A stretch of 58,048 nucleotides of DNA from a virus (Duplodnaviria; Heunggongvirae; Uroviricota; Caudoviricetes), in the IMG/VR virus record IMGVR_UViG_3300020048_000033, positions 85,156 through 143,203 of that record, one strand, 5' to 3'. Numbering within the stretch: position 1 is the stretch's first letter; every line of letters starts with the position of its first letter. This document shows positions 1,112 to 57,615 of the stretch, piece by piece. A program made the translations under genes and the position numbers. Below the pieces are notes generated by a model. It was not told where the DNA came from. It saw only the letters and a list, made by a program, of their open reading frames with translations, and did not search any database.

Positions 1112-1123
1112 CGGAGGTAGATA

Positions 1124-3247: not shown

Positions 3248-3273
3248 GAACTAATTAAACTGTTTAAGGACAT

Positions 3274-3313
3274 CTGGCTACTAACCAGTTGCGAGAACAT
3301 AAGACACTCTCGC
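3274..3313 (+). other. two adjacent stem-loops in the leader of the endonuclease gene
   Basis: CTGG-7nt-CCAG (3274-3288) and GCGAGA-11nt-TCTCGC (3291-3313). Confidence 0.45.
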
Positions 3314-3363
3314 TAACTTATACTTTTTAAGTATTTCTACCCTGAATTATAAAAGAAAATAGT

Positions 3364-5148: not shown

Positions 5149-5197
5149 AGCTTGAAATAAATACGAGAACTAATTGATAATACGACTTGGAGAAAAC

Positions 5198-36600: not shown

Positions 36601-39600
36601 CCAAAGTATAAATGCATCAACAGGACTAACTCTTCCTGAAAATGTATTAGTAGAGGATTGGGTAGCTCATCCAACAAACCCTGTCGATGCTCAGAATGGT
36701 GCTGTTGCAAAAAAATCTTTTTACCGTGTAAATAAGCTTACTGGTGATAAAGTATTGATAAGAGGAAAATATATTTTCTTCAAGTCATATACCAAGACAA
36801 CTACAGGAGAGCTTACCTCAAAAAAATATTGGAAAAAAGCTGTTTTAAGTAGAGAGTACAATATAACAAAAATCTGGTTGGAACAACAAGGGGATAATGA
36901 GTTAAGATACGAAAGGGTTGTCCAAGCTCTTACTGGCATGAGAGAAATTCTTTTGGAACAGTACAATTATGTAAATGCAAATGTGGTTAATGCCGAGGTA
37001 AAGGCAACAACTATTTCTGCATATAATTTTATCAACTCAATGAGTATTGCAACCTATGAAAACTTTATTGTAGCCCTAGCATTGCCAGCAGGAGTATCTT
37101 ACTCGAATATCTATAAAGTTAGAATTCCAGAAACAACAACAGACTCAAACTATAGATTGGTTACTAACTCTACTTTTGCAAGTTTCTCAAATACTGTGGT
37201 AACTACCGATATAAATATCGTAGCTAAACCTTTCAGTTACAAATACTCTGACTATATCCCTGAGGGATCTCCTGATGGAATTGCTGATACTCAATCTGCA
37301 TACTTAGATTATTTGTCTGATATAAGTTCTTACATTCTTAATGATTCTCACAAGCAAGAAATAATTTCAGGTTACATTGACAGTGTTACCCTTACAAATT
37401 CTTTTCTTATACTAAAAACAACTTTTGATACAGTTTCTTACTTCCCTATCTCAAGCTCTTATAGTGTATCCGATATTGAAAATCATGAAAATTGGATTAC
37501 TGCACAAGCTATTAATAGTGACGTTATTTACAACTCAATTTCAAGTCCTGTTAATCTTTACGCAATATCTTCTACCGGTAAACTCGTTGTTCTGGGTACT
37601 GACGTTCAGAATAATGAAAAGCATATCTACGAGATAAACTCTTTTGCCACGAGTGAAGACACTAAAGTTATGGCAGGTTATTGGAGAAAGAAATCAGAGA
37701 TTACAGCCTATGAAGGTACTTCTGTAGTAGAAGATTCAAACCTCGTAACAAGAAAAAAATATATTCCTGCTTATAATTCACTGACTGATATTAATTATCC
37801 GTGTATTTTAGTATCCAAGGATGATGAAAACTTTCAACCTGCTTTTTTTGGTATATCAGTTAGTAACCCTACGAAGGAATATTCTATCGGGGTAGGATTC
37901 GCAGGTTATAAAGTAAATAAGGTTATTTATGAGAACGGAGAGTATAGAGCTTTCTTATCAAACTTCGCAGGAGTTCCTTACAACAATTATTTACGAGCTT
38001 TCTCAGATAATCTTAATAATTGGGATTGGGTAACACCTTCCAGTTCTGAGTATGTAACTCAATTTACAAACTCTAAGATTATACAATTCTCTGATGATGG
38101 AACAATTCCTTCCTCTGTAGTATTTAATCCTGCCTTGGTAGATGGTTCTGGCAATGTAACAGTTGTTGGAAATAAAAAGTTCTCCCTAACTTCCGCATAT
38201 GCTCTACTTGGTTCAGATATAAAAGTAAAGAGTGTAAACGATTCAAGTATTATTCTTGATCAAAATCTTATGTTAACTGCACGAGGTAAAGGAAATATTA
38301 ATGTCCTTCTTTCTGTAAAGACTATGGAATCTATTGTAAATCAAGCAGATTATTTAGATACAAACCTTTTATCAGAATGCATAAACTCAAAAGGTAATTT
38401 TAAGGTTGCTACAATTTCAGAAGTTCCCTCTTTCTACAATGCAGATAAAGTATATCAATATCGTGAAATGCTTTCTACCGAGGATCATGAAGAAAAAGTA
38501 TTAGTGCCTTTTGTTGCAGTAGATGGCTCAGTAACTCAAATAGTTACTACTCAATCCTTTATTGCACAAATATATGATGACACGTATTCTTATGGATATC
38601 CTTCTGTTGCAGAGGATGTTTCAGATATGTCTTTTTATGACTATACTTCTTACATAGACATAAATAATGATTTAGCTTATACCGTAAAACCCCTCACAAA
38701 TAGCAAAGGTAATAACATAATCCTTTGCAATGAAAACGGAGAGGTTTTAGTCAATAGGGAAGTTCAAGATATGGGAAAGAAAGTAATTTCTTTCTATGAA
38801 GAGTTTACTAACAACTCAAGCGTTTTAACCTACGCTCTTTTTGCAGGAAGCTTAAAATACTCCTCAGTTAATGAGGCTTCTAAATATGGCGTAAAGATAA
38901 AGAACAATGCACTTACCTATCTTTTCAATGAACTAAACTTAAGCATTACTCAAATGAATAATGACTTGAACAATCCCTTCATGAAAATAAAGTCCAGTAA
39001 CACTTTGTTACCTGCCATAACGGAGTTTCTGTATAGCTTTGATTCAGAAAATATAGCTAAATATATTTCTGATTATAGGATATTGGATATAAACACTTAT
39101 ACCTATGACTCTGATGGTAATATTACAAACACTATAACAGTACCTGTTGAAGACCAGTATGAAAACTTAAATGGGTTTATATACGACTCGATTAACAACC
39201 GATTCAATTTTAAGGGGAAAATTAATCTTACCTCAAGTGTAACTGTTCCATATGTTTTCTTCGGAACAGATGTTAAGGTTTCCTATAACCCTAGCATTAA
39301 AACAAACTCGTCAGGGGTTCTTACATTAAATGATTCCTTATCCGGTATTTATATGAATAACCTTGGATACGGTGGAAACTCTACAAATCTGGATGAAACT
39401 TTCTCAACCCTTCCTTGGAGTATTGATACAGACGCTTTCTTAGAAATGGATCTATATAATTCATTTGGTGAACCTGTATACCTTGTAAGTAAGTATGGTG
39501 AAAAAATAAATCATGATGAGGGAACCTTGTTTGTAAATCCAAACTCAGGAAGTGTCCCTGTTACCTATGAAGATATGAAATACTCAACAAAGACAATTGT

Positions 39601-41986
39601 TGTTTCTCAGAAAACGGATTATTTGGTTGGAGCTATCCCTACATCAAAGATTGTTAGTGCAACATCTAATATTTATAAACCTGAGGACTCTGCTTATACC
39701 TTAGTTTTGACTAATGAAATGGCACCTGTAAACAGAGATAAAGTAACCGGTCTTATTGAAAATCAAGATACCACAAAAGGTCAAGCAATCCTCTACAAAG
39801 GGATTGAACTTGTAGAAACTGGAGTAACGTATTCAATTGATTTTGGAGTATATACAACTCTTGGGATGACAATTGATTTACTCGGAAATTACATCGTAAC
39901 TTATTGGAATGATTCTCAAGAAAATCTTTCAGAAAAAGCAACGATAAAAATTAATGCATTAGTAAGTGGAAAAATAGTTTCATCTGCATCTGTTACCTAC
40001 CTTGAGTATGTTGTTACAGATACCTCGGCTATCGTTGACCTTTTCCCATCAACCACTTCTGATGAAAGTGATATGAATGATTTACTCCTTAGAGGTATAA
40101 GATATAATTCCGATGGTACTCTGTATGATTCTATTATTGAGGTAACTATCCCAGAAGTTAATTCTTACTCTTTTGTAAACTTCACTCAAGTGGCAGACCC
40201 AGTTACAAGTGAAGTAGATGGACGTAATTTCTTAACTTTCAAGTTAAGCGCACCCCTTACATATACTGGAAAAGATTGTACCATTTCTTTAGAAAATGGG
40301 ACGCTATCAGACATTATAACGTTCAAACAATTAATTGACTCCTCTTACTCTCTGTTCTTTACCAATGAGAACTTTGATATTGTAAAGGGAGATACCGAAA
40401 CCTCAATACTGTTTAGAGTGTACAAAGGAAAAATAAACGAAACCAACAAGGCAACAAATATCATTATTAAAGATAATAAAGGGGTGATTCCAACAAGTGT
40501 AACTCTTATCTCGAATAATTATTACAAGGCAACTTTCTTGAATAGTAGCTTTGTTACTACGCCCACAACCATTTCAGTAAAGGCATCAATTGGTGGAAGT
40601 ATACTTTCAAAAACTTTACCTGTTAGAAACCTTGTTGATGGATCACCCAAGATTTTATTTAATAACAATAATAATGTTGTTACTGAGAATATATCTGTAA
40701 GATTTTCAATAGTATCTTTAAGTTCTAATGAAGTTTCTATAAAAGGTATTTTTTCTCCAGTTATCTGTAAAGTCCCTAAATACATAAACTTTTTGAGTTT
40801 ACTTAAAAACGAAGGTCAGGTAATTGAATCGGGTACTCAATCTTTTATTCCCGTTAGTAGCCCCATAGTTCTGTCAGTAACTACTACAGATTTCATTCTC
40901 AGTGAAAGAATTATTACATCAAATGAAAATTTCAATGATAGAATTAATGATGGAAATTCTCATAACTTGGAGTTTAACTGGCTTACACGTTCTACAATTT
41001 CACAAGAGCCTCAGTTCATGAATGATACTTCTACTTATACTAAGTTGAGTTTAAGTCAAATAGGAAAATATACTCCTGATAGAGTGTTCTTTCCAAACGA
41101 TGGATATCCACAACCTGCTGTAACTATGAACAATGTTATTTATAACTCTGAAAATAATTATATGTATGAATCTAATTACTGGTTCAATGATAATCAAAAG
41201 CGTATCTACGAATGTGATAAAGACGGAAAGTATATTGTATATGGTCTTAAAAATGGAAGTCTTTCTAAAACTACTTTCGATTATGCAACACACTTCTCTT
41301 CTATCAAAGACTTGAGATTTAATCCTCATCAACCTGTTTATACGTCATGTAGTGAATGGTATAAATCAAAGTTCTATCTTGAAAAGAATGAGTCAAATCC
41401 TTATTGGCAGGTTATTAAGTTTGCTGATACATTCAATGTAGATACTCGTGACTTCGACCAGATAGTAAATATCTATTCGTATCAGAAAGGTACCGAGGAA
41501 ATGAAACTTCTTGTTCTTAATGAAGGGGAAAAGTTTTTGAATATTGCTAAGGCAGTAACTGCAACCCTTAATAATAATGAGTTGTCATTGAATAAGTTTG
41601 CAGAATATATAGACCATAAAAATGGAAAGTTGCAGTTCGTTCTTCAACAACCTGATGATACCTATAGAACGTCTTCACAGTTTATTAAATTCGGAATCTG
41701 GGCATCTAATCCGTTCTATGGAAATGAAGTGTTCACTGATAATACCGCAGTAATTAAATTGAGGTCAATTCTTAATTTAAGCTATATTGTAAATAGTACA
41801 GAGAACGTATCTAATCCCTTGGACAAGGATGCTGATATTGTTCAGGTAAGTGAATTAGGTATATTTGATGAAGACCATAACCTTATTGCTTACTCAACTT
41901 TTCCACCAATTGAGTACCACTCTAAAACTCAACACGCTAGTTTTATATGCTATATCAAAGATGGAACTTGTAGTGACATAACATAA
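30683..41986 (+). CDS. giant baseplate wedge (gp7-like) / tail-fibre attachment protein
   Basis: 3767 aa directly after the gp6-like gene; RRKFYGSKLGY near the N-terminus; C-terminal SELGIFDEDHNLIAYSTFPPIEY (tail-collar-fibre-like). Confidence 0.7.
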   Translation: MNLMEYFTSNSEFDLVKRVQITNETPVYNLFEGVNSVLRNDFWSWYLGTQSVDWDLVNGIYDSELEDTYFKSINGALSTSFGPKATQKNPNPTFHKMKLTGTLTPEFDLLLHEVYRYLDTLYPDHYDYTEILTPNELNSMISNASAIVDYSPNLKFFDLLSKSFGITSNGVIDKEALKLKIRDLKSNAFRRKFYGSKLGYKMFGSSVFNNISIFPLGTYLPLSPEDIINNTYQDLPPSSHNINVRSNLYKNKFKLIDWTGESRQVSSELDNNIYCKFYSVPCFDYQVFLLSENNGDLEEFNSINSNNYFVSDHFDLNDTVYIRNKTTSLVKSSKTITDTLISTYENSTRPLNFLTLSKRCPIKYTTSYLLGTWNDFFASLTPSDITLMRDTLADSFDTFVNIASRSLNVTATNSVEFLYRIFNRINDVNSDASIAKFKNFKSVSSPYNTGLLFVEPSTVLDMYTEGYSAHIIFSQNGDFLGYETDAPTISQNSTINIGDVISTSNFSEGFDEKHSLIKVSSLNLGEVYFTSNPVSSYLQDPSIGFNCPEVLESSSIYGALLLSQDGETRVFVQGELNLKVKTQSLYTVPNGGKFSITAIPENLTDELCKLIYPLPYNDIMEKLFEQQGLLLIDSRRVEAQAEIDKLNSELTFLKINRAKLIEVGNSETNEETFSIFTGCFIEKFYKIFGDFTEIVNSEGVYFWHEMITYYGALIDYIDFGTYSVLPIISYGSVATNTNNGFFAEVKTETITGQKFQYLDLIESYITKSNSFLLTEKTPGFLTETTKKQFSYTSIGNNSTISDIVSYDIEIEGTVVDSDDERVTIKFSTEASIHDMQSLTIGDKLFGAGVKAGTYVIDIGDDFITVSDKLLKDGDILFTFTVSFSCAGKDLSDEFDFYRTQLKDTGLLKLANPFENGVWPSAEWPRVSSSFVEGLVDVSLFNIYEPTFYRVMKGTHSKELSYNGVSPSNYLIPSTIKFNNDLFAEINLNRTIPLENRMGSKLNLCNVEFIDYITNSLSDISRGTDIVNCGTQLSMQTDISGYFTQVAGQTYTDPSIKLYFQTFNSEDGLKIPSYAQIGSNGNGRYNWFKSSDDNVSPMVYGGSFFDGQIDGLENKYTDLITNKGIFSKRSVWASRTETELGAKDNSLNEMRYVEKALFEIALGEYDIQYSFAEESNLSNKTHTIQCNFYRQKYDNLKFIIESSEKEAIKLISNKFENLNILTEINKSSIIEDTTGVQPYKLGINNLNKFYLNEIVYCGVWEPTVYNNSVVYPTIEQNYIDNIDTTLFYFTVENGKTLNFNNGLTTLKIENNSLLIFTKNALGGFYWKPTNFVLGGSNYPTAIQSDTVQAKDSFNIMCKNISGNYFVDSSSTVVIDTVDLFKSNFSTYSQDITNLFDESKCYVYVCLFDGLDKNGGTAYDTSKSTVFSAGSYIAVIYDKYCDQLRFFKLNTNTRFVSSLQFDMPPKMSITEFRFLTGANTQFSNTNIRSKVSNSVASIELPKPFLTNGSVDIKVIVDGGFISKGYRLVNSQVDESNIVYFNISNSAIYYDSVLGYFYVQSFEYKSVEGTYVKFGTTLENFYIYFSDPSYFKNTLKNYGTYKLEKTQTSGSSLVDYSPVVSQIEGFTSLFDKLSNEDVILQVKEVITRSFYNALYNNIGFDTHTKLSVDVSSVNSDFTQFIVVPSSTDTLSQIDLKTKINNLWPSSVVDNESTLVFDKEVEIDSDGVEIISDILLRNFGVEETYKCPKLSNVIGNVSSDSITQETTDTSSMEIVENKFFKNNLVMLASVNPESPNKLVSYGNENIFAKVLSTIQANDSVEAIVSLSSNLENSKTISISLRNASFAPTGIYPLPTYIAFNGTTFVAGTNDGYVYYKNGIDSLASLASEIILDISPVRIGSGNPISPATYGSTNSSLQVIDWDDDESKWFFSYDLKNGSEEITVMYESTSLLSFNSAYSETEVVSLPTDFNINNYASNQSINASTGLTLPENVLVEDWVAHPTNPVDAQNGAVAKKSFYRVNKLTGDKVLIRGKYIFFKSYTKTTTGELTSKKYWKKAVLSREYNITKIWLEQQGDNELRYERVVQALTGMREILLEQYNYVNANVVNAEVKATTISAYNFINSMSIATYENFIVALALPAGVSYSNIYKVRIPETTTDSNYRLVTNSTFASFSNTVVTTDINIVAKPFSYKYSDYIPEGSPDGIADTQSAYLDYLSDISSYILNDSHKQEIISGYIDSVTLTNSFLILKTTFDTVSYFPISSSYSVSDIENHENWITAQAINSDVIYNSISSPVNLYAISSTGKLVVLGTDVQNNEKHIYEINSFATSEDTKVMAGYWRKKSEITAYEGTSVVEDSNLVTRKKYIPAYNSLTDINYPCILVSKDDENFQPAFFGISVSNPTKEYSIGVGFAGYKVNKVIYENGEYRAFLSNFAGVPYNNYLRAFSDNLNNWDWVTPSSSEYVTQFTNSKIIQFSDDGTIPSSVVFNPALVDGSGNVTVVGNKKFSLTSAYALLGSDIKVKSVNDSSIILDQNLMLTARGKGNINVLLSVKTMESIVNQADYLDTNLLSECINSKGNFKVATISEVPSFYNADKVYQYREMLSTEDHEEKVLVPFVAVDGSVTQIVTTQSFIAQIYDDTYSYGYPSVAEDVSDMSFYDYTSYIDINNDLAYTVKPLTNSKGNNIILCNENGEVLVNREVQDMGKKVISFYEEFTNNSSVLTYALFAGSLKYSSVNEASKYGVKIKNNALTYLFNELNLSITQMNNDLNNPFMKIKSSNTLLPAITEFLYSFDSENIAKYISDYRILDINTYTYDSDGNITNTITVPVEDQYENLNGFIYDSINNRFNFKGKINLTSSVTVPYVFFGTDVKVSYNPSIKTNSSGVLTLNDSLSGIYMNNLGYGGNSTNLDETFSTLPWSIDTDAFLEMDLYNSFGEPVYLVSKYGEKINHDEGTLFVNPNSGSVPVTYEDMKYSTKTIVVSQKTDYLVGAIPTSKIVSATSNIYKPEDSAYTLVLTNEMAPVNRDKVTGLIENQDTTKGQAILYKGIELVETGVTYSIDFGVYTTLGMTIDLLGNYIVTYWNDSQENLSEKATIKINALVSGKIVSSASVTYLEYVVTDTSAIVDLFPSTTSDESDMNDLLLRGIRYNSDGTLYDSIIEVTIPEVNSYSFVNFTQVADPVTSEVDGRNFLTFKLSAPLTYTGKDCTISLENGTLSDIITFKQLIDSSYSLFFTNENFDIVKGDTETSILFRVYKGKINETNKATNIIIKDNKGVIPTSVTLISNNYYKATFLNSSFVTTPTTISVKASIGGSILSKTLPVRNLVDGSPKILFNNNNNVVTENISVRFSIVSLSSNEVSIKGIFSPVICKVPKYINFLSLLKNEGQVIESGTQSFIPVSSPIVLSVTTTDFILSERIITSNENFNDRINDGNSHNLEFNWLTRSTISQEPQFMNDTSTYTKLSLSQIGKYTPDRVFFPNDGYPQPAVTMNNVIYNSENNYMYESNYWFNDNQKRIYECDKDGKYIVYGLKNGSLSKTTFDYATHFSSIKDLRFNPHQPVYTSCSEWYKSKFYLEKNESNPYWQVIKFADTFNVDTRDFDQIVNIYSYQKGTEEMKLLVLNEGEKFLNIAKAVTATLNNNELSLNKFAEYIDHKNGKLQFVLQQPDDTYRTSSQFIKFGIWASNPFYGNEVFTDNTAVIKLRSILNLSYIVNSTENVSNPLDKDADIVQVSELGIFDEDHNLIAYSTFPPIEYHSKTQHASFICYIKDGTCSDIT

Positions 41987-45045: not shown

Positions 45046-46206
45046 ATGAGTTGGACAGTTGAAAAGAGACCTACACTTCTCTCAGATATGTATGGTTGTG
45101 ATAATGTAAAGACCTATTTTTATAATAGGGTAAAAGACAAAAAAGATTTTCCTACAGCTACAATGCTTTCAGGTCAGTATGGTGGTGGTAAAACTACTAC
45201 GGCTAAAATAATTGCTAAGATGATGACTTGTAAGAACACTACGGAAACAGGCGACCCTTGTAATGAATGTATTGATTGCATAGCAGTTGATAAAGAAACG
45301 TGGTCAAGAGATGTTATGATGATTGATGGTGGTTCCTCAGGAAAAGCTGACCTTATCGATAGAATTCAAGAGTTTACAATGTCACCTCCAATAAGAGGTA
45401 AACGTAAAGTAACCATTGTAGAAGAAGTACAAGAGCTTAGTACAGCGGCAAAGAACTCCCTACTTAAAGCTTTGGAAACCCCAAGAAAGAATATACACTA
45501 TATTTTCTTGACAATGGATAATCCTACAGCTTCAGGATTTCTTTCTCGGTGTACACCTTTCAAGTTTAAGTTTGTTCCAGTAGTAGACCTTATGAAATAT
45601 ATGGCAGTAATTCTTATGGAAGAAAAACTTTGGAAAGAATTGCCACAAGAATTTAAGACAGAGGGGCTTTTAACTCTTGCTCAGAATGCTCAGGGTTCTA
45701 TTCGTCAATCACTACAATTTCTTGAACTTTGTGTAGACCTTAAATGTTATACAAAGAAAGACATTGAAGAACAGACAGGTATGTACAGTGAATCGTCCTT
45801 TATGGAAATTCTCCAAAAAATACTTAATGGTGAAAACTCTGAGCAACTATTTGAAGCAGTTATGAATCCAACAGATTATAATGCAACTTTTAATCTTATG
45901 TTGAAAGTAGTTAGTGATGCAATTTCCTATCGTACTTTTGGTATGGTACCGGGCGATAATGCATATTTTCTTGGACAGGCAAGACAACTTGCAGAACATA
46001 AAAATTTTGAGTTGGTTAAAAATACGCTAATTGACCTTCAGAGAACCTCAAACTCTTTCTTAAAGAAAGCTGTTTATATGTGTACTATTGCGGATCTCGT
46101 ATTTAAGTGTAGAGGTGTTGTACCAAGCGGGGTTACACATATTGTAGAAACTGCTCCTGTTGTTTCTGCTCCTTTACCTACCCGAACCCTTCCGGTGAGG
46201 AAATAA
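45046..46206 (+). CDS. dnaX: DNA polymerase III gamma/tau-like clamp-loader ATPase
   Basis: KRP, GQYGGGKTT (Walker A), PCNECIDC Zn module, IVEEVQEL (Walker B), LLKALE, SRC. Confidence 0.9.
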   Translation: MSWTVEKRPTLLSDMYGCDNVKTYFYNRVKDKKDFPTATMLSGQYGGGKTTTAKIIAKMMTCKNTTETGDPCNECIDCIAVDKETWSRDVMMIDGGSSGKADLIDRIQEFTMSPPIRGKRKVTIVEEVQELSTAAKNSLLKALETPRKNIHYIFLTMDNPTASGFLSRCTPFKFKFVPVVDLMKYMAVILMEEKLWKELPQEFKTEGLLTLAQNAQGSIRQSLQFLELCVDLKCYTKKDIEEQTGMYSESSFMEILQKILNGENSEQLFEAVMNPTDYNATFNLMLKVVSDAISYRTFGMVPGDNAYFLGQARQLAEHKNFELVKNTLIDLQRTSNSFLKKAVYMCTIADLVFKCRGVVPSGVTHIVETAPVVSAPLPTRTLPVRK

Positions 46207-47326: not shown

Positions 47327-48580
47327 ATGGCAAAGAAAAAAGAGAAAGAAAAAGAGGTTGAGGTTGCTGAGGATGTTTCTCAGGAAGGTGAAGGTTCTGG
47401 GAAATTAAATCTTAGAGCTTTTAGAAAAGCAATGAGTGGACTTGCCGAAACGTATACTAAGATTATCGTAGATGTTACCTCAAATCAAATGAAGCGTGGA
47501 GTATTTCTAAATTCCCCTCAGCTAACTTATTTGTTTGGTGGTCAATACCCTACAGATCGTATCATGCAGGTTCAAGGTCCAGAAAGTTCAGGAAAATCTA
47601 CGTTGAGTAATTACATTGCAGGTGAGCTTCAGAAGAAAAAACCTAAACAGCCCATTGTTGTTTATGTTGATTATGAAAGAACCTTCGACCCAATTTATGC
47701 AAATAGACTTGGACTCGATACTTCACCCGAAATGTTTGTTCTTCTTCAACCTGAAAATGGTGAAGATGGATTTGAAGCTATGGATGCCCTTATTAAAACT
47801 GGGGTCGTCTGTTGTATTATTTTGGACTCCGATGCGGCAATGCCTACAAAAGCTATGACCAAAGACGAATACGGTAAAGCTTCTTTTGGTGGTTCAGCCC
47901 GTCTAACTTCGGACGCTTTGAAAAGAATTAATATTCTTCTTAACAAATACGATACCAATCTTATTTGGATTTCACAGGAAAGAGCTTCCATGGCAATGTT
48001 CGGTGCCAATTATGCGGCAACTGGTGGAAACTCCATTAGATTCTTCGCATCAATTAGAAACAGGATTACCAGAGTTGAAACCATTAAGGGTGGAGAAGAT
48101 GGTAAAACCGATATTGGAATTCAGATCAAGGTTCGTAACCTTAAGAATAAAACCAGTATTCCTTGGAGAGAAGCTATCATGAATCTCTACTTTGATGGTG
48201 GATTTCAGATAGATGCAGAATATGTAGACTTCCTTATTAGTTTAGATATCGTTAAACAGAAAGGCGCATATTTTTACATGCCCGGTATTGAAAAGGGTGT
48301 ACAAGGAAGAAAAGAACTTATTGTCTGGCTCGAAGCCAATCCAACCCAATATGATATCTGGAAAAAAGAAGTTCTTGAAAAACTTAGTGGTAAGCTTGAA
48401 GCCGATGCAAACAATGTTGAACCTGAGGAAGATAAAGCATTGCCTGTTCGTGGAGAAACTGCTACTCAGAAAGTTGTTAACTTGGCTGTACAAGCATTGG
48501 GTCTTGCAAGTGAAGCAATTGAAGAAAGCTTTGAAAATGAAAGTTTTAATGAAGATTCTCCCGATCTAGGGATTCTGTAG
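47327..48580 (+). CDS. recA: RecA/UvsX-like recombinase
   Basis: GPESSGKST, YVDYERTFDP, ILDSDAAM, WISQER, TGGNSIRFFASIR. Confidence 0.95.
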   Translation: MAKKKEKEKEVEVAEDVSQEGEGSGKLNLRAFRKAMSGLAETYTKIIVDVTSNQMKRGVFLNSPQLTYLFGGQYPTDRIMQVQGPESSGKSTLSNYIAGELQKKKPKQPIVVYVDYERTFDPIYANRLGLDTSPEMFVLLQPENGEDGFEAMDALIKTGVVCCIILDSDAAMPTKAMTKDEYGKASFGGSARLTSDALKRINILLNKYDTNLIWISQERASMAMFGANYAATGGNSIRFFASIRNRITRVETIKGGEDGKTDIGIQIKVRNLKNKTSIPWREAIMNLYFDGGFQIDAEYVDFLISLDIVKQKGAYFYMPGIEKGVQGRKELIVWLEANPTQYDIWKKEVLEKLSGKLEADANNVEPEEDKALPVRGETATQKVVNLAVQALGLASEAIEESFENESFNEDSPDLGIL

Positions 48581-48607
48581 AAAAGGGAGCCGAAAGGCTC
48601 CTTTTTT
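48581..48607 (+). terminator. intrinsic terminator
   Basis: GGAGCC-GAAA-GGCTCC followed by TTTTTT. Confidence 0.92.
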
Positions 48608-48616
48608 CATAAAGAT

Positions 48617-48645
48617 TTGAACTTTCTGAGATAATCCTATATATT
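48617..48645 (+). promoter_or_regulatory. sigma70-type (early) promoter
   Basis: TTGAAC-17 nt-TATATT; same elements at 51015 and 51822. Confidence 0.7.
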
Positions 48646-48823
48646 ATATGTATAACACCTAATGGATTATTTCACTCAAAATAAAATAACACTAAGATTA
48701 TTTGCGTAATTGGCTATATAGTAAAGAAACTAATAAGATTATAAAATATTGCATAATAAGTAAATATATATTAAAATTTTGTTAATCTTTATATAAGAAC
48801 GTTAGATAGGATGGATATATTAA

Positions 48824-50539
48824 ATGGTAAATGACAAGTGGAATACTATTGAATGGATGGGAACCCTAATATTCCCAAAAGAATACGAATCTCAGAAATA
48901 CAATACCAAAGGTATTGGCCCTTTTGAAAAAGATTTGGAGGAAATGCTATATCACTTTGCGTCAAAGTTAGACACTGAGTATATGGGTAATCCTCTCTTC
49001 ACTAAAAATTTCTATAACTCAATCAAGTCATTTCTTCCTGTGGCATATAGCAAGAAAGAATTTCCCAAAGACTTCATGCCCTATCTTGATCTTATCAAGA
49101 AAGATATTGAAACAAAAAAACTTACCAAAGTATCTCTTTCAGCGAAAGAAAACAAAGCCAAGAAAGCTGAACTCGACAAGATGAAAGCTGATAATGGTTT
49201 CGTTATGCACGATGGAGTAAAACAGCCCCTCGGAACATACTGTATCGAACCACCGGGTATTTTGATTACTCGGGGAACAGACAAACGAATTGGTTCTTGG
49301 AAAGCTAGAACATATCCTGAGGACGTAATCATTAATGCTACCAAAGGAAAAGCCCCTGTAGCACCTGAGGGTCATAAGTGGAAAGCCGTTGTTGAAAATA
49401 AAAAAGCTCTGTGGTGTGCTACTTATTTTGTAAAGATAAAAGGTTTTGATGATCTCCCCAAGAAGATTCTATTTGGTGCTACTTCTACACTTACCAAGGG
49501 TAATGAACAAATTAAGTATGAAAAAGCTCGTAAGCTTATTCTTAAATGGGAAGATATTCAGAAACACATCTTTGATAGTTTTCGTTCTAAGGATAAAAAG
49601 TTTCAGCTTACTGCCATGGTTGTATATCTTGTACAGCTCACTGGTTGCAGAATTGGAAATGACAAAGACCTTGAAGTAGTTGCAGATACGGTAGGTGTTA
49701 GTACCTTGAGAAAAGAACATATTAGCCTTAAGGGAAATATGCTTACTCTGGAATTCTTTGGTAAAGATTCCGTTATGTATAAAAATACTATTGAAGTTTG
49801 TAGTCAAGCATCCACCATTCTTAAGGAACTATTGGACTCCAAAAAAGATTCTGATGAAGTATTTGCTGAGGTATCATCTGTAGATGCCACCGCATTTTTA
49901 AGAGTTATCGTAAAAGATGCAAGCATTAAAACTTTCAGAACTGCTTATGGTACAAAATTGCTTTGTGAAGAACTCCAGAAATTGGATTTTTCAGAACCAA
50001 CCCTTACCATTACTCAGAAACTTCATATGTATGATCTGTGTACTCTTGAGGTAGCTAAAAAGCTTAACCATAAAAAGACCCCTCCGAAGAACTTTGATGA
50101 AAAAACAGAGACACTAAACTCTCGCCTTGAGATGGAAAAAGAAAACGCAAAGGAATTGGAAAAGAAACTTTCTTCTGATATGAAAGACCTTCTGAAACAG
50201 ATTACTATTGCTAAAGAAACCTTCTCTGGTGTTCAGCTTAAAAAATCTTTGGAAAAGTTTGCAGAGAAAAAAGAAAAACTTTCGCTTCGTCTTGCAAGTG
50301 TTAAAACAAGTCTTGAACAAAAAGAAACAAAGTTGAAGTTTAGAGCCGATACAAAAGAAATTGCAATTGGTACTTCAAGGTCTTCCTATTCAAGTCCTCG
50401 TATCGCCTACTCATGGTGTAAAGATACTGGGGTTCCTATTGAAATGATTTATTCAAAAACCGCAATCGGAAAAATGGATTGGGCTTCGGATACACCTGTT
50501 TCTTATTATAAGAAATTTCCTAACGTAAAAGCAAGCTAA
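48824..50539 (+). CDS. top1: DNA topoisomerase IB, large eukaryote/archaeal-type architecture
   Basis: KW..E..G..FP..Y, EPPG..RG...G.WK.R..PEDV.IN, GHKWK.V, CRIGN (R276), GKDS (K314), KTFRT (R372), LNH (H416), GTS..SY..PRI (Y522). Confidence 0.95.
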   Translation: MVNDKWNTIEWMGTLIFPKEYESQKYNTKGIGPFEKDLEEMLYHFASKLDTEYMGNPLFTKNFYNSIKSFLPVAYSKKEFPKDFMPYLDLIKKDIETKKLTKVSLSAKENKAKKAELDKMKADNGFVMHDGVKQPLGTYCIEPPGILITRGTDKRIGSWKARTYPEDVIINATKGKAPVAPEGHKWKAVVENKKALWCATYFVKIKGFDDLPKKILFGATSTLTKGNEQIKYEKARKLILKWEDIQKHIFDSFRSKDKKFQLTAMVVYLVQLTGCRIGNDKDLEVVADTVGVSTLRKEHISLKGNMLTLEFFGKDSVMYKNTIEVCSQASTILKELLDSKKDSDEVFAEVSSVDATAFLRVIVKDASIKTFRTAYGTKLLCEELQKLDFSEPTLTITQKLHMYDLCTLEVAKKLNHKKTPPKNFDEKTETLNSRLEMEKENAKELEKKLSSDMKDLLKQITIAKETFSGVQLKKSLEKFAEKKEKLSLRLASVKTSLEQKETKLKFRADTKEIAIGTSRSSYSSPRIAYSWCKDTGVPIEMIYSKTAIGKMDWASDTPVSYYKKFPNVKAS

Positions 50540-50550
50540 AGGAGCTTAAT

Positions 50551-50808
50551 GTGAAAAAGATAATTTTGTTTTGTTTTATTGGAATGTTGTTTGTAGGATG
50601 TACTCACTATGACAGTAAGACCGGAATTGCTTTTCAGATTCCCAATGCAAACGTTCTTCCTGAGGGTTTTGAAAAAGTGAGAGAAGCGGGAAATGGATGG
50701 TACTTATATTCAAGTCCCGTTGGATTTTTTCTCGTAAGTGTTCAAGGAAGGAGTACTCAATCTCCCTTCGTTGAAATGGTACCACTTGGTAGAGATTTAG
50801 CCGAGTGA
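50551..50808 (+). CDS. small lipoprotein
   Basis: MKKIILFCFIGMLFVG-C signal peptide II / lipobox. Confidence 0.7.
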   Translation: MKKIILFCFIGMLFVGCTHYDSKTGIAFQIPNANVLPEGFEKVREAGNGWYLYSSPVGFFLVSVQGRSTQSPFVEMVPLGRDLAE

Positions 50809-50993
50809 AAGCCTGTAAGGTAATTAAACACTCGATATCAATCGAGTATGAATGTCCTGAGGATAAGGCAAAACACTCAATTAATATTAAAAACCCCCGT
50901 ATTAGTGATGGACAACACTTTTCAGACTGGGAATATGAATATATCACTTTCACCTGCCCTTTCTGCAAAAAAACCCACAATTTTGAGATTTGA
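50805..50993 (+). CDS. small Cys/His-rich (Zn-binding) protein
   Basis: CPEDKAKH...CPFCKKTH; GTGA overlap with the upstream gene. Confidence 0.6.
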   Translation: MKACKVIKHSISIEYECPEDKAKHSINIKNPRISDGQHFSDWEYEYITFTCPFCKKTHNFEI

Positions 50994-51014
50994 GACCGTA
51001 TTTGTTGAAAAGAT

Positions 51015-51043
51015 TTGAACTTTACCTAAAACTCCTATATATT
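51015..51043 (+). promoter_or_regulatory. sigma70-type (early) promoter
   Basis: TTGAAC-17 nt-TATATT. Confidence 0.75.
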
Positions 51044-51069
51044 ATATATGTAGGATACTAGGAGAAAGC

Positions 51070-51813
51070 ATGAACAAAGAACAAATCTCAGGGGGTTATG
51101 TAGACCCCATAAAATGGAGAAAAATTGCTCTAAAGTACCTTCAAGGTAGTGATAAGATTAAAGATTATTACAATCTTTACTCTCTTGGTACTTTCGAGGG
51201 AATGGGGATGCCAGCAAACCCTTCTCAATTTTATCATAAGTCTTGGAATGAATTGATAGGAAAAGGAGTACCCATTTCAGACCCTTTGGAATGGAGAAAA
51301 ATTGCCCTAAAATATCTGAGCGATCCTCCAACTAGAGGTGAATACTCTAAGTTGTATAAAAAAGGAACCTTCCATGGTCTGGGGATGCCTCAGAATCCCT
51401 TGAGTAAATATAAAATGACATGGAATGAACTCGTTGGGAAAGAAGTTTTCCTTGAAAACTACCTTGATTGGAGAGCAGTAGCCTTAAAGTTTCTTAATGG
51501 AAACCTTACTTCCACAGAATACTACCGATTACACAAACTTGGGGTATTTAAGGGTATGGGTATGACCAGTTCACCAATAAGTTTCTACCGTAAAAATTGG
51601 GTAGAATTAATTGGAAAGGAACCTACTCTCATCGAAGACCCCTTGGAATGGAGAAAGATTGCATTAAGCTTCCTTAAGGATAATACTACTTGGGCAGAAT
51701 ATGACCGGCTATATAAATCAGGGGCTTTTTCTTGCTCAGGGTTAAAAATGCCGTCTAATCCAATGGAAAAGTATGGTAAAAAATGGAATGAGCTTATTGG
51801 TAAAGAAAAGTGA
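51070..51813 (+). CDS. protein of four ~59-aa repeats (resembles 'phage-integrase repeat unit' putative DNA-binding modules)
   Basis: W R.IAL.(Y/F)L...EY..L...G.F.G.GMP.NP...Y...W.ELIGK four times. Confidence 0.7.
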   Translation: MNKEQISGGYVDPIKWRKIALKYLQGSDKIKDYYNLYSLGTFEGMGMPANPSQFYHKSWNELIGKGVPISDPLEWRKIALKYLSDPPTRGEYSKLYKKGTFHGLGMPQNPLSKYKMTWNELVGKEVFLENYLDWRAVALKFLNGNLTSTEYYRLHKLGVFKGMGMTSSPISFYRKNWVELIGKEPTLIEDPLEWRKIALSFLKDNTTWAEYDRLYKSGAFSCSGLKMPSNPMEKYGKKWNELIGKEK

Positions 51814-51821
51814 GTTTACTT

Positions 51822-51850
51822 TTGAACTTTTCCTAAAAACCCTATATATT
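51822..51850 (+). promoter_or_regulatory. sigma70-type (early) promoter
   Basis: TTGAAC-17 nt-TATATT. Confidence 0.75.
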
Positions 51851-51909
51851 ATATATGTAGGGTTTACCTACTAATTAAGGTAGAAAACAATTAAATTTAG
51901 GAGTTTATT

Positions 51910-53552: not shown

Positions 53553-55037
53553 TTAGTAATCACCCAGCTTTGTACAATATACTATTGAACCTAGGCTACC
53601 AGAAACAGTAAGAATTAAGTTTTGAGATACACCTACACTTGACCATACATAGGTTGGTGCAGAACCACCGGCTCGACTTATTACATGAGTATAGAAATAG
53701 GGTGAAAGGGCTGAACCACATATATGAACCATTTCGCTACTTCCCATACCAGAATTACCATTCCAACTTTTTATAATAAATACTGCGGAATGCCCGCTGT
53801 AACTATTGAAAGGAACTATAAGATTTCCATCTCCAATTCTGGAATAAGTTGTTTTTCCAACAAGATGTGTTGGATATCCAGTACTATCATTTACTACTAT
53901 AGCATTTGGTGTTTCTGACACAGATTTAACTTGAGAATCCACAAGAGTAGGATCGAGAGAGTATGCGTATTCTTCTTCTACTGACCAAAGATTAGAATCC
54001 AAATAGATATTACCCAAGTGTCCTTTAAATGTTGAATTTCCTGCTTCTGTTTTTCCTATATAAAGATACGCAGGGGTTACATTTAATGCCATTGTTAATC
54101 CGGTTTTTATCTCGAATAGAACTCCATCTTTATATACAGTAATAATTCCGGTAGTTCTATTAATACTACACCCTATTGTATGATTAGTTCCTGTGAAGAA
54201 ATTAAGAAAAGAAGCATACATTAAAGCTGAGCCATTCCAATAAGAAATAATTAAAGTTGTTGAGTTAGCACCTCTTAAAATTGCTTGATGGTATAAACCA
54301 TTTTGACCTAAAATATTTTGATTTACTGTTAGACCTTCAATATTATTCCAAGTGCAATGCATATTAAATATAGCAGGTTGTGAAAAGTAATCTTGGGATT
54401 TTAAATAAGAATTAAATCCATTGAAGCTCAGGTCTCTTGAAAACTTACCCTTAGTTGAAATACAAGAAGTATTTATAAAGTTTAAGTTATTACCTGATTT
54501 ATCATAAAGTAAGGTAGAATATACTCCTGTACCTACATAAAGTTCTGCAATATCACAAAAGGTTGAGCAGGATATGTAGAAACCATTAGTTGCTATCCCC
54601 ACAGGAATAATTCCAGAAGTAATCCAATATGTCCCCATATCTTTTCCATAATAGTAATTATCAACACCAGTCCAAATAGTAATTTGACCATTTGTAGTTC
54701 CTGTTTTTAATATTTTCAATGAAAAAAATTGACCCGCAACAAGTGTTAAATCACTTTTATTAAGTACTGATGCGTAACCATTTCCTGCTACACAGTGGAG
54801 ATTACCTGCAACAAGTGTTACTGCTCCTCCCTGCATATCTGCCCAACCATCTACAGCATTTTTAGGAAATCTATAAGTTATTCCCCCATCTGGAATATCC
54901 ATAATTCCATCACCGGTTAGTTGACCTAATCTTGAAATACTAGAATACTTTGTATCTTGTATTGTAGACCACTTGTTTGTTTTATAAACAAAGTTTTTGA
55001 AAATCTGTCCCTCTACAGGACTTATTGGAAATGACAT
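53553..55037 (-). CDS. tail fibre / receptor-binding protein with LamG (concanavalin-A-like) domain
   Basis: FPISPVEGQ start; YDKSGNNLNF...SFNGFNSY...TVYKDG...LYIGK...FKGHLGNI. Confidence 0.75.
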   Translation of the reverse strand: MSFPISPVEGQIFKNFVYKTNKWSTIQDTKYSSISRLGQLTGDGIMDIPDGGITYRFPKNAVDGWADMQGGAVTLVAGNLHCVAGNGYASVLNKSDLTLVAGQFFSLKILKTGTTNGQITIWTGVDNYYYGKDMGTYWITSGIIPVGIATNGFYISCSTFCDIAELYVGTGVYSTLLYDKSGNNLNFINTSCISTKGKFSRDLSFNGFNSYLKSQDYFSQPAIFNMHCTWNNIEGLTVNQNILGQNGLYHQAILRGANSTTLIISYWNGSALMYASFLNFFTGTNHTIGCSINRTTGIITVYKDGVLFEIKTGLTMALNVTPAYLYIGKTEAGNSTFKGHLGNIYLDSNLWSVEEEYAYSLDPTLVDSQVKSVSETPNAIVVNDSTGYPTHLVGKTTYSRIGDGNLIVPFNSYSGHSAVFIIKSWNGNSGMGSSEMVHICGSALSPYFYTHVISRAGGSAPTYVWSSVGVSQNLILTVSGSLGSIVYCTKLGDY

Positions 55038-55053
55038 TTAGTGTCCCCTTTTA

Positions 55054-56583
55054 TTAAGCTATTACATATGTTACAGAAAACATTATTGCACTTGTATTTA
55101 CAAAGTTTGAGTTTGTCAATGGCAATAAACTTCCTGCTTCGTTAAGTTGTTCAAGATATACCTCAGTTGTGTTTTTAACTGCATACCCAAATACCTGTCC
55201 TGTATAGGTAACTAAATACATCCACAAAGATGCAGGTGAATAACTATTGTTATGGTCTTTAACAGAAAAAGGCAAACCTGATATCGAGGCTAATCCAACA
55301 GAACTTCCTTTATTAGTTATTGTAATATACCCTGATACAGTGCATCTATTTCCTACAAGTTGCCATTGTGCTTGTCTAACTCCATAGGTTACTCCAACAG
55401 ATGCTCCACCAAAGTTTAATGTCATATCACATACACCATTTGGAAAACCAATATTTCCTAAACCATCTCTTGAAGCTAATGAATAAGGCATAGAAGTATT
55501 TGATTTTATTTGACTATCAATTCCCTTAGAGTCAATATAAAGTTTATACATTTCATCTGATGTCCAAATTCTTGAGTCATAACGGAAAGCGGAAATTATT
55601 CCCTTTAGGGGGAGGGAACTATCTACACTATCCTTTCCTAAGAAAAGAGCATTTGTTGATTTCACCATTGGAGATGTCAATGTTAATGGGGGAATATCCA
55701 CGCCATTAATTTGAATATTACATGCAGTTGCGGTAATCGTAAGTACTATAGTATCAAAATCCGTAGTCCCTGATGAAAGTGTATAAAAAGTATTTGACTG
55801 CAATGTTCCTGACCCAAAACGAATTACCATTGTATTATTAGAAATAACATCAAGGATAAATCCTATTGTTTTCCCTGCTTGAGTATTATCAATAAGTCGA
55901 TAAGTTCCTATTGCGTCTCTTTTGAATTTAATTAGTATTGAGCCTGTTGCTCCGATGACAGGGTTATTTGCTTGCAAGAAACTTGTTGCACCATTAAATA
56001 GTAAACCCTTTCCATCAGGTGAAGCTACTGGAAGACAATTATTGTTTGTGAAGTTATTTCCATTTCCTGACTTGTCATAAACTTTTGAAGAGTAGTTACC
56101 TGTTCCTAAATATAAACTAGATATCTCAATTACTCCATTAATTCCATAACAGATTGGTGTACCTGATGTCATAGATACACTTACCGTATGCCATGAGGGG
56201 TTTGTTGTTGATAAGGGAGATGGAGAGTTACCATAAACAAACTGACCGCTTATTACTCTGCATCTAATAACCATTATTCCTGTAAAAACATTACCCGTAT
56301 AATAGTATCCTTCATTTACACTATCAGCAGTTAAAGTCCATATGCCATTTGAAAAAGTATTGACAGGGGTTACATTAATAATCCATCCAACTGGTGGAGC
56401 AGTAAAATATGAATTAGAATAAACCGCTACTCCATCAGGAATTTCTGGAACACCATCACCGGATATTTCACAGACACGAGAAATGTCTGAGACAAGATTA
56501 TCATTAATTATATTCCATTTATCCGTTTTATAAATATAGTTCTTAAAGATTTGTCCCTCTATAGGACTTAGTGGAAATGCCAT
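55054..56583 (-). CDS. tail fibre / receptor-binding protein with LamG domain, paralogue of 53553-55037
   Basis: FPLSPIEGQ start; YDKSGNGNNF...LFNGATSF...LFLGK...LKGIISAFR. Confidence 0.75.
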   Translation of the reverse strand: MAFPLSPIEGQIFKNYIYKTDKWNIINDNLVSDISRVCEISGDGVPEIPDGVAVYSNSYFTAPPVGWIINVTPVNTFSNGIWTLTADSVNEGYYYTGNVFTGIMVIRCRVISGQFVYGNSPSPLSTTNPSWHTVSVSMTSGTPICYGINGVIEISSLYLGTGNYSSKVYDKSGNGNNFTNNNCLPVASPDGKGLLFNGATSFLQANNPVIGATGSILIKFKRDAIGTYRLIDNTQAGKTIGFILDVISNNTMVIRFGSGTLQSNTFYTLSSGTTDFDTIVLTITATACNIQINGVDIPPLTLTSPMVKSTNALFLGKDSVDSSLPLKGIISAFRYDSRIWTSDEMYKLYIDSKGIDSQIKSNTSMPYSLASRDGLGNIGFPNGVCDMTLNFGGASVGVTYGVRQAQWQLVGNRCTVSGYITITNKGSSVGLASISGLPFSVKDHNNSYSPASLWMYLVTYTGQVFGYAVKNTTEVYLEQLNEAGSLLPLTNSNFVNTSAIMFSVTYVIA

Positions 56584-56598
56584 TTTGTACTCCTTGGT

Positions 56599-57615
56599 TT
56601 AATTCTGTCTTATTACTAAAAATGGTAAAGCACCGGTTCCACCTGTTAGGGAAACAGTACCACCTTGAGATTTATACATAAAACTACTTCCATGAAGGAC
56701 TGCATATGTAGCATTTGGGGAAGCAGGTAAAGTCATTGTACAGGTTGAAACTGCGTATCCAGCTATTATTTGACCAACAGTCATTGCTTCCATTGTAAAG
56801 TTGGAACCCCTCGCCGCATATGAGGTACCCCCTGATACAACCACTGTTGCGGTATTTGCTGTTTGTGCAGAGTTTACATTTAAGGATGACTCTACTTTTC
56901 CATAGGCTGTTCCTGTAGTATTTTGATTCCAAGTAGGGATATATTTATTATTTAGTATTCTTCTCCAACCAGGAGCATAAGTTGCACCATTAAAAACATA
57001 AACCCAATCTGTTAGTGCATTACTTAAATTTCCTGTTGTAGGTGTTGTAACCTCAAGAGTAAAAGCGGATGCAGTACCTGTTATTTTTAATACCGAACCC
57101 GCTAAAGGAATATTTGGAACGGAAGCATCCCCAGAATCATTTAGCGTAGCATTGGTGGCATATGACCACTCACCCCTAAGTACCCAAGATTGAAAACTTG
57201 GAGATATATAACCTTGTGCTGTTAGCCATTCAATAAAGGTATCTGTAGTTATAAAACCATTAGTACCATAAAATGATAGAGTTTTCGTTTTAGTTACTAC
57301 ACCTATTTGAGATTCTATCTGAGCTTTTGTTATGGTAGTTACCGTTGCAGAGTTTCCATCGCAATGGTCTGATCTATATGCACGATTAACTAACATTGTT
57401 CCAATAGCATTATTAGCCACTCCCCACACACCTAAATGTTTATATGTGGTAGTTGGATTAATAATATTCTCTGCAAGGTTTGAAGCGTTACCTGTTCCTC
57501 CGTTTGCTACAGGAAGAATACTTTCTGAGAATATATTTTCCCAAGCCAATTTGGTTGAGTTGTATTTTTTATTTTTATATATCTGTCCATTTGTTGGACT
57601 TGTTGGATATGCCAT
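56599..57615 (-). CDS. tail fibre protein
   Basis: YPTSPTNGQ start; LPVANGGTG; PTWNQNTTGTA-type fibre motifs. Confidence 0.7.
   Translation of the reverse strand: MAYPTSPTNGQIYKNKKYNSTKLAWENIFSESILPVANGGTGNASNLAENIINPTTTYKHLGVWGVANNAIGTMLVNRAYRSDHCDGNSATVTTITKAQIESQIGVVTKTKTLSFYGTNGFITTDTFIEWLTAQGYISPSFQSWVLRGEWSYATNATLNDSGDASVPNIPLAGSVLKITGTASAFTLEVTTPTTGNLSNALTDWVYVFNGATYAPGWRRILNNKYIPTWNQNTTGTAYGKVESSLNVNSAQTANTATVVVSGGTSYAARGSNFTMEAMTVGQIIAGYAVSTCTMTLPASPNATYAVLHGSSFMYKSQGGTVSLTGGTGALPFLVIRQN

Follow-up and report, generated by a model that had tools for sequence, protein, structure and literature searches.

We analysed a 58,048-nt stretch of viral DNA (hereafter the window; positions 85,156 to 143,203 of the IMG/VR record IMGVR_UViG_3300020048_000033, classified in the Caudoviricetes) that carries a gene for a type IB DNA topoisomerase (TopIB) on the plus strand at 48824..50539. 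Its product is very probably a functional long-form TopIB that is resident in a jumbo tailed phage, likely acts as the swivel of that phage and belongs to a distinct clan of phage enzymes. The enzyme family is already known; its phage home and the size and depth of the phage clan are what is unexpected. In the literature up to 2022, long TopIBs are known from eukaryotes and from Bathy-, Aig- and Thaumarchaeota, and the bacterial and viral forms are short (PMC2621148, PMC8371274, PMC8748870).

The gene was delimited from the list of open reading frames (ORFs), Pfam matches, an alignment with human Top1 and a structure model compared with known structures. It encodes 571 amino acids from an ATG start, with the stop codon included in the coordinates, in a single intron-free frame with no internal stops. 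A Pfam scan of the protein returned three domains, all scoring well over their curated cut-offs. The cap or DNA-binding region, which comprises core subdomains I-II (residues 5-207, 48836..49444), matches Topoisom_I_N (PF02919, E = 3.3e-37) over profile positions 2-206 of 213, with 128.5 bits against a cut-off of 25 bits, and also resembles the N-terminal fragment of yeast Top1 (1ois). The catalytic core (residues 221-448, 49484..50167) matches Topoisom_I (PF01028, E = 8.2e-47) and contains R276, K314, R372 and H416. A predicted coiled-coil linker occupies residues 424-509 (50093..50350), and the C-terminal domain (residues 496-559, 50309..50500) matches Topo_C_assoc (PF14370, E = 5.7e-18), with Y522 in the motif GTSRSSYSSPRI. 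All of these lie on the plus strand. The small N-terminal domain of short TopIBs, of the virDNA-Topo-I_N type, was not found in the Pfam scan.

Based on phmmer, human Top1 chains (1rrj, 1a36 and others) align to residues 5-558 with E-values of about 1e-65. The Caldiarchaeum enzyme (CsTOP1, 6z01) aligns too, with an E-value of 2e-61, and so does the Leishmania large subunit. Matches to the short enzymes of poxviruses and Deinococcus are restricted to residues ~255-386, with E-values of 1e-4 to 5e-5. An earlier annotation made from the sequence alone (the first-pass annotation) had named R276, K314, R372, H416 and Y522 as the five catalytic residues, and the human alignment confirms each of them in its place, on the human motifs RAGNEK, LGKDS, KVFRT, CNHQR and NY.DPRI, respectively. 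The pentad is invariant in a 35-sequence alignment of the family. Likewise invariant are R150, K231, D315 and T517, which correspond to human R364, K425, D533 and T718. The motifs quoted in the first-pass annotation were also located (EPPG at residues 142-145, PEDVIIN at 165-171, GHKWK at 183-187, LNH at 414-416 and GTSRSSYSSPRI at 516-527), although some of the spacings it gave between conserved letters are one residue off. Missing is the long, charged and poorly conserved extension that precedes the cap in eukaryotic Top1 (PMC2621148): the protein begins with MVNDKW, and residue 5 already pairs with the start of the human core.

An AlphaFold2 model built from the 35-sequence alignment has a mean predicted local distance difference test score (pLDDT) of 91.3 and a predicted template modelling score of 0.81. 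In this model, secondary structure assignment with DSSP resolves the linker into two long helices, residues 424-466 and 470-509, with pLDDT values of 84-94 by block, consistent with the coiled-coil linker of ~90 residues proposed earlier. The best Foldseek matches are human Top1 (1rrj_A and 1a36_A), with a template modelling (TM) score of 0.85 by query and 0.86-0.89 by target, a root-mean-square deviation of 3.0 A and an E-value of 8e-39. This superposition spans ~569 columns, including the two-helix linker, at 27-29% identity. Scores against the short TopIBs of variola virus and Deinococcus are 0.26-0.33, and the tyrosine recombinases XerH, Cre and P2 integrase are matched weakly, at 0.2-0.3. 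The fit of the whole model to the open apo crystal of CsTOP1 is poor (TM 0.46-0.48), because the model has a closed clamp and the crystal an open one; the conformation differs, and not the fold. Taken with the three Pfam domains and the end-to-end alignment, the TM score of 0.85 supports the proposal of the first-pass annotation that 48824-50539 encodes a full-length TopIB of the eukaryote/archaeal type, with cap, core, linker and C-terminal domain. Every long-form feature that we examined is present in the sequence or the predicted structure.

To place the protein we used a tree of 108 long TopIBs (546 columns; IQ-TREE, LG+C20+F+G4 with posterior mean site frequencies; supports are ultrafast bootstrap/Shimodaira-Hasegawa-like approximate likelihood ratio test, SH-aLRT). 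The rows include 45 metagenomic and IMG/VR proteins of the phage clan, 14 named Nitrososphaerota and 11 named eukaryotes, drawn from Metazoa, Corallochytrium, a fungus, a plant, a red alga, an amoebozoan and a jakobid. The remainder are Namao virus, other sequences resembling those of nucleocytoplasmic large DNA viruses (NCLDVs), and representatives of each other clade in a FastTree analysis. The tree resolves a phage clan of 49 rows (96/91), a Thaumarchaeota clan of 25 rows (95/85, or 100/98 without one stray row) and a clan of eukaryotes and NCLDVs of 34 rows (100/99). A quick tree search gave the same topology as the careful run. The window protein falls within phage subclade A (36 rows, 100/99), where it shares a long stem with two relatives at 61-65% identity. 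The branch of the phage clan itself is short (0.066), and the median path, in changes per site, is 2.38 for the phage clan, 1.51 for the named eukaryotes (six supergroups) and 1.16 for the named Thaumarchaeota. The first-pass annotation had suspected an unusual lineage; this clan, apart from both eukaryotes and Thaumarchaeota, is larger than its reader could have known.

A second tree, based on 244 core columns, included five short TopIBs as outgroup (from Novosphingobium, Legionella, Nostoc, a Rhizobium phage and a huge phage), taken from plasmid and phage records. The long forms, including the window protein, are monophyletic against these five (SH-aLRT 97), so that the protein does not branch within the short bacterial and poxviral enzymes. 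The phage and Thaumarchaeota clans are sisters in this tree (SH-aLRT 94). The outgroup root fell inside the eukaryote/NCLDV side, by the longest ingroup branches, and we set this placement aside as a likely case of long-branch attraction.

As the window protein is separate from both the eukaryotic and the thaumarchaeal clan, its gene does not appear to be a recent capture from either. We therefore regard as highly improbable the notion of a passenger gene that has no settled role in the phage and was acquired recently, whether from a eukaryote, a thaumarchaeon or a giant virus. Phages do acquire cellular genes, NCLDVs do have long TopIBs (Namao virus and a GVMAG contig are examples), and the identity of the window protein to eukaryotic and thaumarchaeal enzymes is alike, at 30-34%. 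However, the protein is nested in neither cellular clan, although both are well supported (the thaumarchaeal one once the stray row is removed), and the 49-row clan of phage and metagenomic sequences is internally deep. Furthermore, RecA stays upstream of TopIB in relatives at 36-65% identity, the catalytic residues are invariant, and a promoter motif of the phage itself lies ahead of the gene.

A bolder reading of the tree is that long TopIB is old and independent in large tailed phages, as a third primary lineage beside those of eukaryotes and Thaumarchaeota and not a fast offshoot of one of them, and that virus-to-cell transfer, out of these phages or their ancestors, may have seeded the patchy archaeal distribution or even eukaryotic Top1. 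We hold this to be a speculative and rather unlikely scenario. Viral-origin proposals exist for the eukaryotic type IIA topoisomerases and would be a parallel for a phage origin of TopIB. The phage clan may be ancient or merely fast-evolving, and any transfer may have run in either direction.

Two IMG/VR contigs, L015 (156 kb) and L016 (121 kb), encode long TopIBs of 517-523 aa that have all three Pfam domains and branch basally in the Thaumarchaeota clan, not in the phage clan. The two contigs could belong to viruses of ammonia-oxidising archaea. Other labels inside this clan are an Anaerolineae metagenome-assembled genome (MAG; L118), an Aenigmatarchaeota MAG (L055) and P0197/P0274 (656 aa), of which one copy is on a 3.98-Mb contig. 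These non-thaumarchaeal or unassigned labels could reflect horizontal transfer or mis-binning.

The source record is a linear, metagenome-assembled contig, and the first-pass annotation had raised the possibility that it is chimeric at this gene. We looked for signs that a eukaryotic or archaeal fragment had been fused to phage DNA by misassembly or contamination. Two other contigs, an ENA MEGAHIT contig of 163,769 bp and a Logan contig of 10,143 bp, encode the identical protein between the same flanking genes. The Logan contig, which comes from the probable source run, bridges the locus, spanning recA, TopIB and downstream genes with no differences from the window. Two more samples from the same aquatic study contributed low-depth contigs that tile the TopIB gene, also with no differences, and pieces at 48707-48950, 48780-49283, 50431-50763 and 50512-50799 extend across both gene ends. 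The GC content is even, at 0.30-0.37, the promoter motif ahead of TopIB occurs contig-wide, and the ORF has neither introns nor the eukaryotic N-terminal extension. An apparent joint from 48607 to 51008, considered as a deletion variant, was read as a repeat artefact, with a short side of 21 letters and two copies of the promoter motif. Three assemblies and two further samples thus agree that the TopIB gene is resident on the phage replicon. Chimerism is excluded for practical purposes, and we give it next to no credence.

Relatives of the protein are numerous in metagenomes. A search of 5.8 billion proteins yielded 323 with E-values of 1e-10 or less among 8,000 candidates scored. The top ~65 are metagenomic proteins of 545-648 aa with 33-65% identity, all with the three Pfam domains, and many of them are encoded on contigs between 60 kb and 940 kb in length. 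The first eukaryotic Top1s with a name have about 31-34% identity. When 1.84 billion cluster representatives were scanned exhaustively with HMMER, 433 matched at E-values of 1e-30 or less. Scans with a single motif found 14 viral contigs of 47-388 kb in IMG/VR and at least 556 loci in GTDB genomes, the GTDB motif being derived from a 10-sequence alignment. The best 80 of these GTDB loci are almost all from Nitrososphaerota, at 29-34% identity. The window and related contigs also have in common the recA-like gene, a block of four baseplate genes and a gene with a STAS domain.

Among 50,697 deposited phage genomes, none has a match over 80% or more of the protein, and the only TopIB matches, in Rhizobium phages and one huge uncultured phage, are to the catalytic core alone. 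According to Pfam, the Rhizobium phage enzyme is without the cap and C-terminal domains. No PHROGs family matches TopIB, so that this phage library lacks the protein family. The literature searched as full text, a corpus with most subscription journals outside its coverage, contained no description of a phage with a long TopIB.

Two of the related contigs have features of their own. The scaffold L002 (ENA ERZ28612970 scaffold_1, 940,564 bp) encodes a 647-aa TopIB of the phage clan, close to a homologue of the window ORF at 9284-10372. Almost no Pfam matches surround its TopIB gene, and the scaffold would be exceptionally large if it is a single phage genome. A 100% complete jumbo-phage genome of 300,878 bp with direct terminal repeats (G004) has only a 263-aa ORF (L017 9992-10783) that corresponds to TopIB residues 307-563, and neither a cap nor the first catalytic Arg was found near it. 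By sequence, the enzyme of G004 may be truncated or split, reminiscent of the two-subunit kinetoplastid enzyme.

In the window, TopIB lies at the end of a replication and recombination block, in the order clamp loader, HD hydrolase, RecA-like recombinase and TopIB. The clamp-loader subunit, of the bacterial DNA_pol3_delta2 type, is at 45046..46206 on the plus strand (phrog_5846, E = 1.9e-40; precomputed Pfam match to PF13177). The immediate upstream neighbour of TopIB, at 47327..48580 on the same strand, is a RecA/UvsX-like recombinase (phrog_97, E = 1.5e-58; precomputed Pfam match to RecA_N, PF00154). The order clamp loader, RecA and TopIB is conserved in L047, a relative with 61% identity, and RecA is also 5' of TopIB in L002, at 36% identity; in these two contigs the distance is 2-4 genes. 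In L047 (3498-6950), the recA-like gene 5' of TopIB is interrupted, with two RecA_N ORFs around an intein-splicing match.

The recA-like gene is closed by a hairpin, GGAGCC-GAAA-GGCTCC, followed by a T run (48586..48607, plus strand), which was read directly from the sequence and would act as a terminator; a consensus scan called its palindromic stem on the minus strand. Beyond it, a promoter-like motif, TTTGAACTTT-N10-CCTATATATTATAT, occupies 48616..48656 on the plus strand. It was recovered as repeat family D3 and in the consensus scan, resembles a sigma-70 promoter (TTGAAC-17-TATATT), and its 34-nt form ends 175 nt 5' of the TopIB start codon. The window has three exact copies (48616-48656, 51014-51054 and 51821-51861) where none is expected by chance, and the 143-kb contig has 12, all of them on the plus strand. 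Where copies were compared with ORF starts, they are intergenic and 5' of an ORF, and the motif probably represents one class of phage promoter. Based on this contig-wide motif and the upstream hairpin, the TopIB gene appears integrated in the transcription pattern of the phage itself. Downstream, at 50551..50808 on the plus strand, is an 85-aa ORF with a lipoprotein-type signal, MKKIILFCFIGMLFVGC, taken from the ORF list and also predicted as a gene in an independent assembly. This ORF is probably co-transcribed with TopIB because the next promoter motif comes only at 51014. Another ORF (51070-51813, plus strand) encodes 247 aa with four tandem repeats of ~59 aa (a period of 177-180 nt; motif DP.EWRKIALKYL...Y..L.K.G.F.G.GMP.NP...Y...W.ELIGK) and has no PHROG match.

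The contig that bears this locus is probably that of a jumbo tailed phage from an aquatic sample. The record has 143,203 bp, of which bases 85156-143203 form the window, and is 47% complete according to CheckV, which implies a genome of ~300 kb. Coding density is ~87% and nearly all genes are on one strand. Upstream of the window, 28 tRNA genes are arranged in arrays (G000:C1:30564-83854, loci L020-L023). One of them has a CUA anticodon of the amber-suppressor type (labelled Pyl by ARAGORN), which may point to reassignment of TAG in part of the genome, although code 11 leaves the window ORFs open, the one of 3767 aa among them. The gene inventory comprises two helicases, SbcC, NrdD, primase/polymerase-like and RtcB-like genes, a DNA polymerase in two ORFs, several homing endonucleases, a transposase, the clamp loader, the HD hydrolase and the UvsX/RecA-like recombinase. 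Structural genes are represented by 56599-57615, which matches tail-fibre PHROGs (E = 5.5e-18), and by 15336-16616, whose Atlas model resembles baseplate-hub models of Phage_GPD/VgrG (TM 0.62-0.64). The ORF at 9284-10372 is a lead only, with T4_baseplate annotation for 11-14% of its nearest clusters. A relative from IMG/VR with a full TopIB (G001, 388 kb, 98% complete) has Terminase_6N and 58 tRNA genes, including a CUA tRNA.

The host is probably bacterial, because the promoters are sigma-70-like, the recombinase is of the RecA type, the clamp loader is of a bacterial type and the 85-aa ORF has a lipobox, and because the named relatives of NrdD are bacterial and relatives are binned with Bacteroidales and Patescibacteria MAGs. 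The closest relatives of NrdD are metagenomic proteins, many with an intein, and the named ones come from several bacterial phyla. NrdD itself has 1017 aa and an ATP-cone (L019 9799-12849; G000:C1:9799-12852), and its presence suggests an anoxic or microoxic habitat of the host.

We also considered that the contig belongs to a virus of an archaeon, either of Nitrososphaerota or of another TopIB-bearing lineage, and that its TopIB mirrors the replication toolkit of such a host. In line with this, the core tree rooted by the outgroup has the phage clan as sister to the Thaumarchaeota clan (SH-aLRT 94), and L015 and L016 lie at the base of the latter. However, a rooting based on 244 columns and long outgroup branches is unreliable. 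Moreover, the RecA-type (PF00154) recombinase, the DNA_pol3_delta2 clamp loader, the 12 sigma-70-like motifs, the lipobox-type signal peptide, the exclusively bacterial named relatives of NrdD, the bins of the relatives and a hairpin with T run typical of bacterial terminators all argue for Bacteria. An archaeal host thus seems improbable.

For the TopIB family, clamping of the duplex, nicking of one strand, controlled rotation and resealing that needs neither ATP nor Mg are established; long forms relax supercoils of both signs by way of a 3'-phosphotyrosyl intermediate. In the phage, Y522 would attack and nick one strand of the clamped DNA, the duplex would swivel under control inside the clamp, and the nick would then be resealed without ATP or Mg. 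Acting as a swivel, the enzyme would remove the positive and negative supercoils that result from replication and transcription of a very large genome, and would stand in for the type II topoisomerases found in other large phages. A role in replication and transcription is the most likely one. We favour it because of the location in a replication module, the gene's own promoter and the lack of any other topoisomerase detected: nothing scored above cut-off for type IIA (PF00521) or type IA (PF01131) enzymes in the contig or in four viral records related to it, the 98% complete G001 among them, a search with two Pfam models on mostly incomplete genomes. These models found their families in 12 of 14 and 14 of 14 control genomes, respectively.

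An active enzyme could also have another purpose, either as a weapon against the host, by trapping cleavage complexes on its DNA, or as a site-specific resolvase or a packaging factor. The poxvirus TopIB is sequence-specific and is packaged in virions. The catalytic fold is common to tyrosine recombinases, as the weak Foldseek matches to XerH, Cre and P2 integrase reflect. In addition, CsTOP1 spontaneously makes stable cleavage complexes (PMC8748870). Nevertheless, clamp, linker and active site fit a general relaxing enzyme, with a TM score of 0.85 to human Top1 against 0.2-0.3 to the recombinases. The gene is in the replication module and not among virion or lysis genes, and other topoisomerases were not detected in related phages. 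We consider such purposes very unlikely, and a swivel for replication and transcription remains the preferred function.

Several points weigh against the reading of a functional swivel enzyme resident in a jumbo tailed phage. The description of the contig as a tailed phage in the first-pass annotation is probably correct, based on the baseplate-hub fold, the tail-fibre domains and the phage replication genes, but not on head genes. Three Pfam models (Terminase_6N, Terminase_6C and Phage_capsid) had no match on the 47% complete contig and, overall, no terminase, portal or capsid genes were detected on this fragment, so that the term tailed rests on baseplate and fibre. When the terminase and capsid models were applied to five more records that bear TopIB, they matched in G001 only, the negatives coming from incomplete records except for G004. 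The indications of a bacterial host are indirect, and enzymatic activity is deduced from conservation and the predicted fold. The limited reach of the two-model topoisomerase search counts here as well. Finally, the support for the phage clan (96/91) is good, yet weaker than that of the clan of eukaryotes and NCLDVs (100/99) and of the Thaumarchaeota without the stray row (100/98).

Residues of the window protein at positions linked to the camptothecin response of the human enzyme are Ser521 at N722, Thr149 at G363 and Leu147 at F361. Across the 35-sequence family, the position equivalent to N722 is N in 18 sequences, A in 9 and S in 8. N722S is a known resistance substitution, and 1RRJ, the best structural match, reportedly stems from the study of that substitution. 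The archaeal CsTOP1 is camptothecin-resistant owing to its clamp dynamics (PMC8748870). Reduced camptothecin sensitivity of the window enzyme is plausible from these residues.

Other parts of the window yielded further observations. At 227-5118, the DNA polymerase is present as two ORFs in an order inverted relative to the phrog_17 profile: the ORF at 227-1111 corresponds to profile positions 1058-1227 and that at 1124-3247 to positions 604-1052. A 584-aa HNH/homing endonuclease comes after them, and the polymerase could be permuted or split. Nine ORFs between 5.2 and 24 kb had no match in PHROGs or Pfam. One candidate for a tail sheath, at 5174-6778, was rejected, as the Atlas search gave only weak peptidase-like leads (TM 0.40 or less). 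Giant ORFs, all on the plus strand, lie at 30683-41986 (3767 aa), 18993-23927 (1644 aa, with no Pfam match) and 28112-30649 (845 aa). On the minus strand, 53553-57615 holds three successive genes of 494, 509 and 338 aa whose 5' ends are conserved (repeat families D2 and D5); the 338-aa gene, last of the three, is the one that matches tail-fibre PHROGs. The trio resembles a cassette that encodes paralogous receptor-binding proteins.

The distribution of long TopIBs has been used to argue that the common ancestor of Archaea and Eukarya already had TopIB. The phage clan of complete long enzymes is a third reservoir beside eukaryotes and archaea and, because this reservoir exists and is diverse, horizontal viral routes need to be weighed in that argument. 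It also suggests that some jumbo phages manage DNA topology by a type IB swivel and not by a type II enzyme like that of T4. The phage proteins are compact, intron-free and probably soluble, at ~570 aa, and would be useful for studies of clamp dynamics and drug response, the latter because the residue that corresponds to human N722 varies naturally among N, A and S.

Among known enzymes, the thaumarchaeal and aigarchaeal TopIBs (CsTOP1, 6Z01, and that of Nitrosopumilus) have the same layout of cap, core, linker and C-terminal domain, and are also without the eukaryotic extension. They are alike in size (520-580 aa), share 30-33% identity over the full length and have the same catalytic pentad, but they form a separate clan in the tree and are encoded by cells, whereas the window enzyme is encoded by a phage. 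Human Top1 (1A36, 1K4T, 1RRJ) has the active-site residues in common with the window enzyme and a linker of similar length. In contrast to the window enzyme it has a charged N-terminal domain of ~200 aa, and it belongs to the clan of eukaryotes and NCLDVs (100/99), outside which the window enzyme falls.

The short TopIBs (vaccinia 1A41, variola 2H7F, Deinococcus 2F4Q, mimivirus and Rhizobium phage RHph_N46) share the core and the chemistry. Their sequence matches are weak and limited to residues ~255-420 (E = 1e-4 to 6e-9). At about 310-370 aa they are without the Topoisom_I_N cap, the linker and Topo_C_assoc (PMC2621148), all three of which the window enzyme has. Closest in circumstance are the long TopIBs of giant viruses (Namao virus AXN90922.1 and the GVMAG contig L014), which are likewise virus-encoded, long-form and equipped with the three Pfam domains. 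These branch within the eukaryote clan (100/99), a placement consistent with capture from eukaryotic hosts, whereas the phage clan does not.

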